From the IMG/VR virus record IMGVR_UViG_3300017774_001282, positions 1-36,334 of that record: a stretch of 36,334 bases of DNA. One strand, 5' to 3'. Positions 13,320 through 23,831 of this stretch are shown piece after piece. Both the position numbers and the translations under genes were made by a program. Under the pieces are notes generated by a model. The model searched no databases. It worked only from the letters and a program-made list of their open reading frames with translations, and had not been told where the DNA came from. The stretch comes from a virus. Its lineage: Duplodnaviria; Caudoviricetes. Positions within the stretch are counted from its first letter, which is position 1, and every line of letters begins with the position of its first letter.

Positions 13320-13350
13320 CAAAGATATAAATACTTTGGATACCACCAAA
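13320..13350 (-). promoter_or_regulatory. Bacteroidota promoter (-33 TTTG, -7 TATCTTTG)
   Basis: TTTG (13347-13350, -), 19-nt spacer, TAnnTTTG (13320-13327, -). Confidence 0.8.
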
Positions 13351-17200: not shown

Positions 17201-17235
17201 GAAAAGAAGGAGGCCACCCCAGTAGATGGCCATCC
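17201..17235 (-). terminator. Rho-independent terminator
   Basis: Minus strand GGATGGCCATC-TACTG-GGGTGGCCTCC-TTCTTTT. Confidence 0.6.
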
Positions 17236-18239: not shown

Positions 18240-18268
18240 AAAGTTAGGGGAGGAATAACCCTCCCCCA
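18240..18268 (-). terminator. Hairpin/terminator after the DUF932 gene
   Basis: GGGGAGG-GTTATT-CCTCCCC-TAACTTTT on the minus strand. Confidence 0.55.
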
Positions 18269-20860: not shown

Positions 20861-21055
20861 TCAGATTGTGACATACAATTCCGGTTTTGATATTTGTGTT
20901 TTGAAGATGAATTCCCTATACATACTGTGCGCCGTCTTGACGTCGCATCCGAAGAGGTCCATATACTTCCGTACGATGGACTGCTTGGTGGTCTCTACCT
21001 TAGACTCGGTCGGCTTATACTTTGAGCGGACCGGCATTTGTTTTCTTTGTCTCAT
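20861..21055 (-). CDS. Hypothetical basic protein
   Basis: ATG 21055 (MRQRKQ...). Confidence 0.55.
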   Translation of the reverse strand: MRQRKQMPVRSKYKPTESKVETTKQSIVRKYMDLFGCDVKTAHSMYREFIFKTQISKPELYVTI

Positions 21056-22110: not shown

Positions 22111-22347
22111 TTATTTGGTTATGATTTCAATGATTCGCTGTCTGATTCTATCGATGTTGCATGGCGCTTCATACGGGATGGAAACCCTCTTGGACCTATG
22201 CAGATTGGCTAAGTACTTGTCTTCTACCCTATACCACTCGTATACTTCAAGGGAATACCCATCCCTACCGCGCTTGGTAGCGTAAAATTCATACATGCCA
22301 TGCTTGAATAACTTGTAGCCGTCTTCTGATTCAAATTTGATTTTCAT
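22111..22347 (-). CDS. Hypothetical protein
   Basis: 78-aa ORF. Confidence 0.6.
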   Translation of the reverse strand: MKIKFESEDGYKLFKHGMYEFYATKRGRDGYSLEVYEWYRVEDKYLANLHRSKRVSIPYEAPCNIDRIRQRIIEIITK

Positions 22348-22363: not shown

Positions 22364-22693
22364 TTATTTGATTGCTCTCACAAACCATGAGCCATTTGGT
22401 GAATATAGTTCATAGCCTACTACCTTGCACATGGACTGCACTGCATTCCAAATGTCTTTAACATCTGAATGGCAGAGGAAATGCCGATTGCCATGGTGGT
22501 ATTGGATTGTTTTACCCAATTGTGGCTCAATACATTTGCAGAAATTGGCGTAGTATTCCATGTTGAACTTGAAGTCTCTGAGATTCACGACGGAGTCTAG
22601 TAACATTCTGCGCTCACGTCCTAGGATGCCTATGCTTCTTGCCTCGTCACGAGACATGGTCAGTAACTTGTTGAGAGATTGTTGTTTTGACAT
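22364..22693 (-). CDS. Hypothetical protein, first gene of the early operon
   Basis: 109-aa ORF with A-rich leader directly downstream of the twister ribozyme. Confidence 0.65.
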   Translation of the reverse strand: MSKQQSLNKLLTMSRDEARSIGILGRERRMLLDSVVNLRDFKFNMEYYANFCKCIEPQLGKTIQYHHGNRHFLCHSDVKDIWNAVQSMCKVVGYELYSPNGSWFVRAIK

Positions 22694-22725: not shown

Positions 22726-22791
22726 ACGACCTCTCTGTATTTATTCGGGCTTGAGACCGACATCCGATTCCGGCATGGCTACATTAGTCAT
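22726..22791 (-). ncRNA. Twister self-cleaving ribozyme, type P1
   Basis: Minus strand AUGAC-UAA-UGUA-GC-CAUGCCG GAAU CGGAUG-UCGG-UCUCAAGC-CCGA-AUAAA-UACA-GAGAG-GUCGU: P1 AUGAC/GUCGU, UAA cleavage loop, P2 UGUA/UACA, P3, P4 UCGG/CCGA with loop UCUCAAGC, CUC/GAG pseudoknot. Confidence 0.9.
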
Positions 22792-23158
22792 TCACGCTCC
22801 CATCTAAGCAAAATTGCTACGTGGTGAGCGCAAAAGCAATCCATTGAGCCTCATGACTACGATTAAATCCGTATGCGATAAATCTGCAATACGTTCGATG
22901 GATTGGCTACTCTCTCATTTATAATCTCAGCAAGTTGATTGGGACTGCCTACTTCCTAACTGACTTACGTCGTGAGGTGGTTTCGTGTTTAGGTTAGGAG
23001 TGCATTTCCAAGGATGGTTACTTGGTGTTCCTAGAGCCCGTTTACATTCCGGTTAACGTTTACTGAGTGATTTCGCGCAGTGCAGTTTTTTAAGCATTAC
23101 TCTTATTGGTGTTGACCGGATGGTCAGTGCATTTCCATTGTGAGTGATAAAAACCTGC

Positions 23159-23170
23159 ATGTCAATGAAC
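23159..23170 (-). promoter_or_regulatory. boxA-like antitermination element (GTTCATTGACAT)
   Basis: Resembles rrn boxA (GYTCTTTGACA-type) about 50 nt after the early promoter. Confidence 0.55.
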
Positions 23171-23224
23171 TGGGTGGGCAGGGAGTAGGCCACTTAGTTA
23201 GGTGGGCTGTGCCGCTTTCGAATA

Positions 23225-23255
23225 CAAATCTAGACCTATTTTGCAGATTAGCAAA
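23225..23255 (-). promoter_or_regulatory. Early promoter (-33 TTTG, -7 TAGATTTG)
   Basis: TTTG (23252-23255, -), 19-nt spacer, TAnnTTTG (23225-23232, -); TTAACA-N5-TTAACA immediately upstream. Confidence 0.8.
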
Positions 23256-23263
23256 CAGTGAGA

Positions 23264-23764
23264 TGTTAAAACTTTGTTAAACGATTTTTGCATAGATCTA
23301 TGGGCATGCGATAATCCCACCACCAATTGAACCGCGCGACACACATGCGCGCATACGCGTACGCACACGTGTAAGGGAAAACTGTGTTAAAGAAAAGCCA
23401 AAAAATATGTTAAAGAAAACCAAAAATCCCCAAATTTCGATTATCTCAGTGCCGGTAAGGTGTTTGTATGGTTTGGGGGGTTGAGGGGCTTAAATCGGCT
23501 TCTAAATCGTTTTAGATTTGATGCAGTGGATATGTTAAAGTCCTGTGAAAACCAATGCTTTAACACCACGTTAACAACTTTAACCTTATACGGATGTAGT
23601 ACAATACAATACAATAATGTTGAGAAGGATGAGAGATTGCGCAATACAATAAAATAGGGACGTAAACAATAGGTTATCCCCTAGTTTAACATCCCTTTAA
23701 CAATGTTCCACGTGAAACAATCACTTTAACATATAATTAACAAGGCATTGTGAACTCCTTAACA
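23264..23764. repeat. Array of TTAACA hexamers, mostly as 11-bp-spaced direct pairs
   Basis: Pairs at 23264/23275 (TGTTAA), 23560/23571, 23686/23697 and 23726/23737(/23759); singles at 23385, 23408 and 23533. Confidence 0.75.
23704..23719. promoter_or_regulatory. parS: parS centromere-like site
   Basis: TGTTCCACGTGAAACA, an exact match to the bacterial parS consensus TGTTNCACGTGAAACA. Confidence 0.85.
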
Positions 23765-23831
23765 TACTAAAGATCTTAGCAAATCGTACTAAAGAATTTA
23801 GTAATGCCGGAATCGAAATTCAATGTAGCAA

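Follow-up and report, generated by a model that had tools for sequence, protein, structure and literature searches.

What is the function of a long, ORF-poor RNA leader that lies between an early phage promoter and a predicted ribozyme? We addressed this question in a 36,334-base stretch of DNA, here called the window, which comprises a whole virus record and encodes matches to terminase, portal, primase/helicase, Erf and endolysin; freshwater metagenome is the label of the sequencing runs that contain at least half of it. Minus-strand ORFs that run from 22693 to about 5943 are mostly small and unknown, in an arrangement like that of a phage early operon. A sequence-only reading had described the region ahead of them as a promoter–boxA–leader–ribozyme cassette with two copies of a 12-mer, and we found the promoter, the boxA, the 12-mers and the twister ribozyme where it had placed them. 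This cassette proved genuine, and related phages preserve its layout.

Early promoter, untranslated leader and boxA

The promoter (23225..23255, minus strand) was identified by pattern match, with TTTG at −33 and TAGATTTG at −7. Strict matches to TTTG-N19-TAnnTTTG, which we take to be the Bacteroidota promoter consensus, numbered 3 in the window versus 0.84 expected, a count reached by 4 of 100 shuffles. Because of this promoter type, and with support from the same type of −7 box upstream of boxA in Bacteroidota 16S leaders, we infer that the host belongs to the Bacteroidota. The −33 region is identical in a related record (L001), which shares 82–93% identity with the window in long flanking blocks and whose alignment ends inside the promoter. 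Judging from the promoter, transcription would start at about 23219 on the minus strand, and a strict-pattern scan found no minus-strand promoter from 23232 to 13327.

Several other features surround this and similar promoters. Upstream of the early promoter, an alternating purine–pyrimidine palindromic tract with T-rich repeats (23340–23435) is kept in all related leaders; together with the many TTAACA repeats at 23260–23760, it is possibly an origin or a DNA-level site. The segment 13350–13223 (minus strand) holds a second strict promoter with a terminator-like hairpin no more than about 70 nt downstream, and possibly represents a small RNA or an attenuator. The related leader L190 contains two promoter-like sites about 100 nt apart with a boxA after each, an arrangement comparable to the tandem promoters of rRNA operons.

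The claim that no credible ORF lies between promoter and ribozyme was borne out, as the longest sense ORF of the window leader spans 35 amino acids from ATG and 46 from GTG (23193–23053). The GTG frame would be the main argument for a leader that codes for small proteins or a leader peptide. We consider this explanation very improbable, given that the frame has no counterpart in relatives and that the longest ATG frames of the 12 leaders known to us are 16–62 amino acids. The first early ORF (22364..22693, minus strand; 109 amino acids) gave no family above cut-off and differs between relatives. One RNA run (X19) yielded a single 206-nt contig at 22299–22504 and none over the leader, which is uninformative either way.

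The boxA-like sequence turned out to have the form found in Bacteroidota rRNA operons (23159..23170, minus strand). We observed GYTCWTTRA in 70 of 99 Bacteroidota 16S leaders, compared with a shuffled mean of 1.45 and a maximum of 6; the 99 are those of 121 loci with at least 250 nt upstream. The boxA of the window itself occurs as an exact 11-mer in 5 of these leaders and as an exact 12-mer in 1, which makes it a host-lineage sequence if the lineage is that given by the promoter type. It lies 54 nt downstream of the −7 box, and the corresponding distances in rrn leaders range from 12 to 242 nt, with clusters near 40 and 50–75. In all phage leaders but one (11 of 12), a 5′ hairpin precedes a boxA-like site; L191 lacks the site. 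For the E. coli rrn antitermination complex, boxA is described as necessary and sufficient, and the order of the rrn leader as boxB–boxA (PMC10250234, PMC8632103). The same promoter-proximal order of hairpin and boxA was found here. The hairpin domain at the boxB position (23178..23215, minus strand) is a short module that the window shares with L171, where it is internal, and L190; it is seen in relatives and folds weakly in the window (z −0.06). A sigma-70-like TTGACA/CACAAT pair that overlaps boxA was dismissed as chance level (11 found versus 12.3).

Mosaic leaders and a two-strand motif

Related leaders were gathered through neighbouring genes and a DNA tag that is conserved upstream, which yielded 11 distinct leaders in addition to that of the window (L171, L173, L174, L175, L180, L182, L187, L188, L190, L191 and L345). 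L171 comes from the same record as L001 and L157, and L173 from the same record as L167. From an 18-locus set we dropped L177 (the window's own record), the unrelated loci L179, L181, L183 (partly seen), L184, L185 and L189, and the duplicates L176, L178 and L186; L172 was separately found to be unrelated. In a 64-locus set, 61 loci lay within long open frames, L369 had no stems, one locus repeated L173 and L345 was a new leader. No full-length relative was found by blastn against GenBank phages, the double-12-mer pattern matched 0 viral contigs, and nhmmer with the leader against 155 loci (124 twister loci included) returned no relative.

All 12 leaders are ORF-poor and about 440–640 nt long, and blastn patchworks revealed that they are mosaics. 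L187 and L188 match at 1–160 and over the last 89 nt and differ between, a near-identical strain of the window phage (X5) keeps 22951–22706 and skips or replaces 22952–23046, and the window leader shares only two short pieces with other leaders, at E 0.009. Patchwork sharing and swapped modules mean that there is no 430-nt RNA family. A defined family of ncRNAs of about 430 nt is thus not supported: the leader has no full-length homologue, and modules are swapped even between near-identical phages. In L158, L159, L160, L161 and L164, a long ORF-poor stretch is placed after the first gene. The layout of these five loci, at about 3800–2900 on the minus strand, runs from a boxA-like site through a basic first gene and a terminator-like hairpin to an ORF-poor stretch of 600–800 nt; three of the five end in a minimal tRNA-like stack, and the four that were scanned gave no Rfam match. 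In the portions of L166, L168 and L169 that were read, we saw no long leader free of ORFs.

The leader had also been called structured, which holds locally and fails overall. The whole leader of about 430 nt folds like its shuffles (z −0.41 and −0.95 in two runs), and among eight folded segments only the hairpin at 22835–22790 (minus strand), directly 5′ of the ribozyme, was clearly stable (z −5.15; 0 of 200 shuffles as stable). This hairpin is possibly a folding insulator for the ribozyme. The long stem CAAUCCAU/AUGGAUUG of the original description (22837..22905, minus strand) did appear in the fold, with no stability beyond that of shuffles (z −0.17), and the only relative of this module is in the near-identical strain. 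Among the related leaders, 5 of 11 fold at z below −2. Covariance models of GOLLD, ROOL, RAGATH and other Rfam RNAs gave no match to the leader except a chance-level hit at E 6, and the relatives had no Rfam match other than the hammerhead and some T-arm fragments. A multibranch module that begins with GCC-ACA-CCG-GAAU-CGG is conserved at L173:1230–1330(−) and in equivalents in L174, L175, L180, L188 and L345; one of its hairpins is compensated in L175, and nothing in Rfam matches the module. The CCGGAAUCGG hairpin of the relatives' multibranch module is also the P3 insert of the window twister.

The 12-mer occurs twice in the window leader as exact direct repeats 127 bp apart, and an exact repeat of at least 12 nt was found in 0.45% of 2,000 shuffled leaders (P 0.0045). 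Its core, RGAAAUGCAY, is present in 9 of the 12 leaders, 6 of which have two copies, and the GG form of the core occurs 13 times in the first 11 leaders, compared with 0.02 in shuffles. The core is degenerate in L171, and L182 and L191 have no motif. We found that the core strand GG-AAA-UG-CAC pairs opposite a second strand, A-CA-CC, so that two stems enclose, in order, an A-A-A bulge, two pairs and a CAC/A loop. From copy to copy the stems on either side vary yet remain paired, and both permuted orientations occur, with one copy of each in the window and one copy nested within another in several relatives. Exact direct repeats near a promoter could also be DNA operators for a phage or host regulator; however, complementary partner strands with co-changing flanks in two permuted orientations are an RNA signature, which largely refutes the operator explanation and leaves it with very little probability.

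Copy 1 (23107..23137, minus strand) has the GG-AAA-UG-CAC strand first and the A-CA-CC strand second, and sits within a larger interrupted stem (23159–23081); its P value was 0.027 against the shuffled leader and 0.084 in a looser test. Copy 2 (22995..23033, minus strand; P 0.003) is permuted, with the A-CA-CC strand first. L190 has a copy in this orientation as well, as do L173, L174, L187, L188 and L345, where it is the outer one, and the segment is skipped or replaced in the near-identical strain (joint 22951/23047). Stems had been noted at both 12-mers, and these features are present, but the pairing UCCUAAC/GUUAGGA given for the second 12-mer is probably not conserved; the fold and the relatives pair UCCUA with an upstream UAGGA (23033–23029).

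When a strict 3x1 loop was required, 8 of 10 distinct CAC cores had a partner strand at P ≤ 0.027, with L175 and L180 failing. Outside the leaders 1 of about 45 cores passed, and 14 of the 15 passes among 62 cores were in leaders, duplicates included. None of 65 cores passed in the 60 host loci that were fetched, the matches listed for 301 Bacteroidota genomes and these 60 loci contained no recurrent host counterpart, and the core was found in 0 of 99 Bacteroidota rrn leaders. In alignment A4, 10 of 13 pairs were changed on both sides (0 of 500 shuffles), a count that is partly circular because segments were picked by their stems; the partner-strand tests in leaders, outside them and in host loci are fairer. 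The 12 leaders recombine and are thus not independent, and among them we count about five or six distinct stem variants.

In 10 of the 12 leaders the motif, or a variant of it, begins 10–33 nt downstream of boxA, which is the position of a nut/put-type cis element. The nut/put-like role suggested earlier is compatible with this position, and the repeated 12-mer, now seen as a conserved RNA motif, is a plausible binding site. A similar string presumably occurs in the 690 loop of 16S rRNA in a different pairing context. At the level of sequence, the 3x1 CAC/A loop, with CAC on the long strand, resembles a C-loop; the C-50 construct includes a CAC strand (PMC2441787).

These results also bear on the possibility that the leader is itself the product. 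It would then fold in an rRNA-like manner with a Nus chaperone recruited by boxA, be released by the cutter and act in trans as a stable RNP or as a decoy; the repeated motif would titrate a host protein, and the swappable modules would resemble accessory anti-host genes. We entertain this possibility with some reserve. Complexes on rrn RNA also chaperone RNA folding (PMC8632103) and phage decoy RNAs exist (PMC10651486); in addition, modules with compensatory changes are common to relatives and exchanged as cassettes (L187/L188; strain X5), and the motif is usually doubled (6 of 9 leaders with the exact core). On the other side are the missing full-length family, the unexceptional stability of the window leader, the positional tie of the first motif copy to boxA, and the lack of a recurrent host counterpart among the matches listed for the 301 Bacteroidota genomes, where 0 of 65 cores pass. 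Antitermination in cis and an action of the released leader in trans can coexist.

Cutter-like elements at the end of the leader

The window leader ends in a twister ribozyme of type P1 (RF03160; 22727..22790, minus strand; E 4.8e-11). The model was matched over its full length (positions 1–68) at 54.8 bits, below the Rfam gathering score of 67.2, and we could read P1, the UAA cleavage loop, P2, P4 and the complementarity for both pseudoknots from the sequence. The predicted cut, between U22786 and A22785, would leave 92 nt ahead of the first start codon. Upstream of the promoter, at 23795–23815, lies a 21-nt near-copy (86%), in inverted orientation, of the twister's 5′ part, which is not present in L001.

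In L171, a type III hammerhead occupies the place of the twister (E 1.2e-4, below gathering). All 10 remaining leaders contain a tRNA-like acceptor-plus-T stack of 12–13 bp, with a T-like loop of 8–9 nt, not 7; it lies 19–35 nt before the start codon, and its sequence comes in three or more variants whose stems have changed. Neither ribozyme leader has such a stack, and the cutter types were never found together (twister in 1, hammerhead in 1, stack in 10). RNase P cleaves RNAs that present an acceptor/T stack, and the D loop is dispensable (PMC4919913). The geometry of such a substrate (acceptor on T stem, about 12 bp, T-like loop) was present in 10 of 10 ribozyme-less leaders, and by analogy these elements may be cut by RNase P/RNase Z.

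The tRNA-like elements lie before the first gene (L174:968–1039(+), L175:2531–2613(+), L187:1113–1184(−), L345:476–545(−) and others) and are candidate RNase P/RNase Z sites. They take the form of a full degenerate cloverleaf or a short version without the anticodon arm, with no call by Rfam or by ARAGORN at default; at relaxed thresholds, where unrelated hits also appear, ARAGORN called three. A pair count on the tRNA-like alignment (29.8% pairing) was uninformative owing to mis-registered structure and mixed subtypes, and a per-sequence count was used instead. The pattern of the short element matched 0 viral contigs, and the slot rule is therefore without an independent test set. A hammerhead-core-like pattern between early genes of L166, at about 3155 on the minus strand, was not confirmed by Rfam.

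One position that holds three unrelated cutter types amounts to a natural swap experiment, pointing to severing of the leader as the selected function and making it directly testable. One possible explanation is that the cut alone matters, fixing where the early mRNA begins, how stable it is or how it is translated, with the other leader sequence largely passive. The cutter is always near the first start codon (19–35 nt after the tRNA-like stack), and phage ribozymes have been proposed to act in mRNA processing (PMC3088659, PMC6765202). However, a cut by itself leaves unexplained the boxA in 11 of 12 leaders and the presence of the two-strand motif in both orientations, and we regard this explanation as unlikely.

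A candidate antitermination leader and its known counterparts

Our best reading, to which we give an even chance of being correct, is that the leader mimics rRNA, acts in cis in antitermination and is afterwards severed. This reading builds on what can be read from the DNA itself, namely the promoter, the identity of boxA, a motif conserved together with its partner strands, a twister that is intact, a single cutter-like element in each leader and the terminator-like hairpins downstream. The leader would be the untranslated front of the early transcript and would likely act in cis as a mimic of an rRNA operon. In this scheme the host Nus antitermination complex would be recruited by boxA, and the two-strand motif after it would likely bind RNA polymerase or an additional factor; host RNA polymerase would thereby read through terminators over roughly 10 kb before the next strict promoter. 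The twister, if it cleaves in vivo as predicted, would sever the leader from the mRNA. This cut would be the counterpart of RNase III on rRNA leaders, and, as ribozyme cleavage leaves a 5′-OH end, so would the end of the mRNA be. The variable middle modules would be accessory and exchanged by recombination.

Between 23232 and the next strict promoter at 13327, the polymerase would meet terminator-like hairpins at 18268 and 17231. The first (18245..18268, minus strand), which resembles an intrinsic terminator of the early operon, is identical in L001; the second (17212..17231, minus strand) is kept there with one loop change. This conservation is weak evidence because L001 is 86% identical in that region, and the 21 terminator-like sites of the early region, versus 14.3 in shuffles (s.d. 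4.4), are not a clear enrichment. What the Nus complex is described to prevent is termination by Rho (PMC5725501), so an extra step would be needed to read through intrinsic terminators. Complexes formed with N and put read through intrinsic terminators too (PMC10250234, PMC8632103), which makes a second element beside boxA attractive.

A candidate, and no more than that, for a partner of the motif is a conserved 64-amino-acid early protein (20861..21055, minus strand) with an Arg/Lys-rich unstructured N terminus and a helical hairpin, modelled as a disordered basic tail plus helical hairpin at pLDDT 77. It is encoded in the records of L001, L167 and L345 and in L174 and L175, has remote homologues in loci of the L158 type (28% identity, E 6e-4 pairwise) and gave no Pfam, PDB, Atlas or Foldseek match. 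The protein is also present in motif-less relatives, which weakens the link between the two.

Counting against the cis-acting antitermination leader are L182, which has no motif, L191, which has neither motif nor boxA, and L166, L168 and L169, which show no long leader in the part that was read. Functions beyond antitermination are suggested by the size of the leaders, as a cis signal would need less than 100 nt and they keep 430–640 nt of modules, and by the folding of 5 of 11 relatives at z below −2. We also propose, tentatively, that the leader represents an undescribed RNA antitermination or RNP module, in which boxA and a doubled A-A-A-bulge/C-loop-like motif would bind a dedicated factor (possibly the 64-amino-acid protein) or RNA polymerase, on a recombining cassette that is necessarily severed by interchangeable twister, hammerhead or tRNA-mimic cutters. 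What most genomic self-cleaving ribozymes do in bacteria and phages is described as an open question (PMC6765202), and, if our reading is true, those of phages would gain a concrete, testable function. The leader may further reveal antitermination in Bacteroidota phages without a recognizable N or put, and the conserved motif, which is small and uncatalogued, lends itself to pull-down and structural studies.

The leader resembles Bacteroidota rrn leaders in promoter type, in the order of hairpin and boxA, in boxA sequence and in being an untranslated leader removed by processing, here a predicted step. It differs in that it precedes a phage mRNA, that its cutter is a ribozyme or tRNA-like element, and that the motif core occurs in 0 of 99 rrn leaders. 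In the nut site of phage lambda, a small boxB hairpin lies just after boxA. Similar to lambda nut/N and HK022 put, the window has a structured RNA at the start of an early operon with internal terminator-like hairpins and, as in nut, the structured element adjoins boxA; however, a long interrupted stem replaces the small boxB hairpin after boxA, and the motif, compared with nut and put, is an internal loop that is often doubled or nested. We found no homologue of N, and the conserved basic 64-amino-acid protein is without a family, PDB or fold match. The architecture is also unlike HK022 put, a double hairpin of about 65 nt that acts without factors and is described as having no boxA (PMC8632103).

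Ribozymes that flank phage genes are known and have been proposed to process long transcripts, and those of phages and prophages, like the twister and hammerhead here, lie just before a phage gene (PMC3088659, PMC6765202). In the present leaders, by contrast, a single cutter closes a boxA leader, in a slot that is interchangeable with a tRNA-like element. GOLLD and ROOL are likewise long, structured, phage-borne non-coding RNAs (PMC12286853), but the leaders have no Rfam match to them and are mosaics with no conserved global fold. In open-access article text, we found no description of the layout, the motif or the interchange of ribozyme and tRNA mimic. The part that appears to be new is the motif together with the tRNA-like substitutes.

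In the early leader of coliphage T7, promoters are followed by boxA, an RNase III site and gene 0.3; our literature search found no paper showing this order. The order of parts in the window is the same as in T7, and the two differ in that the phages described here have a long modular leader, a conserved motif and RNA-encoded cutters in place of the RNase III site.
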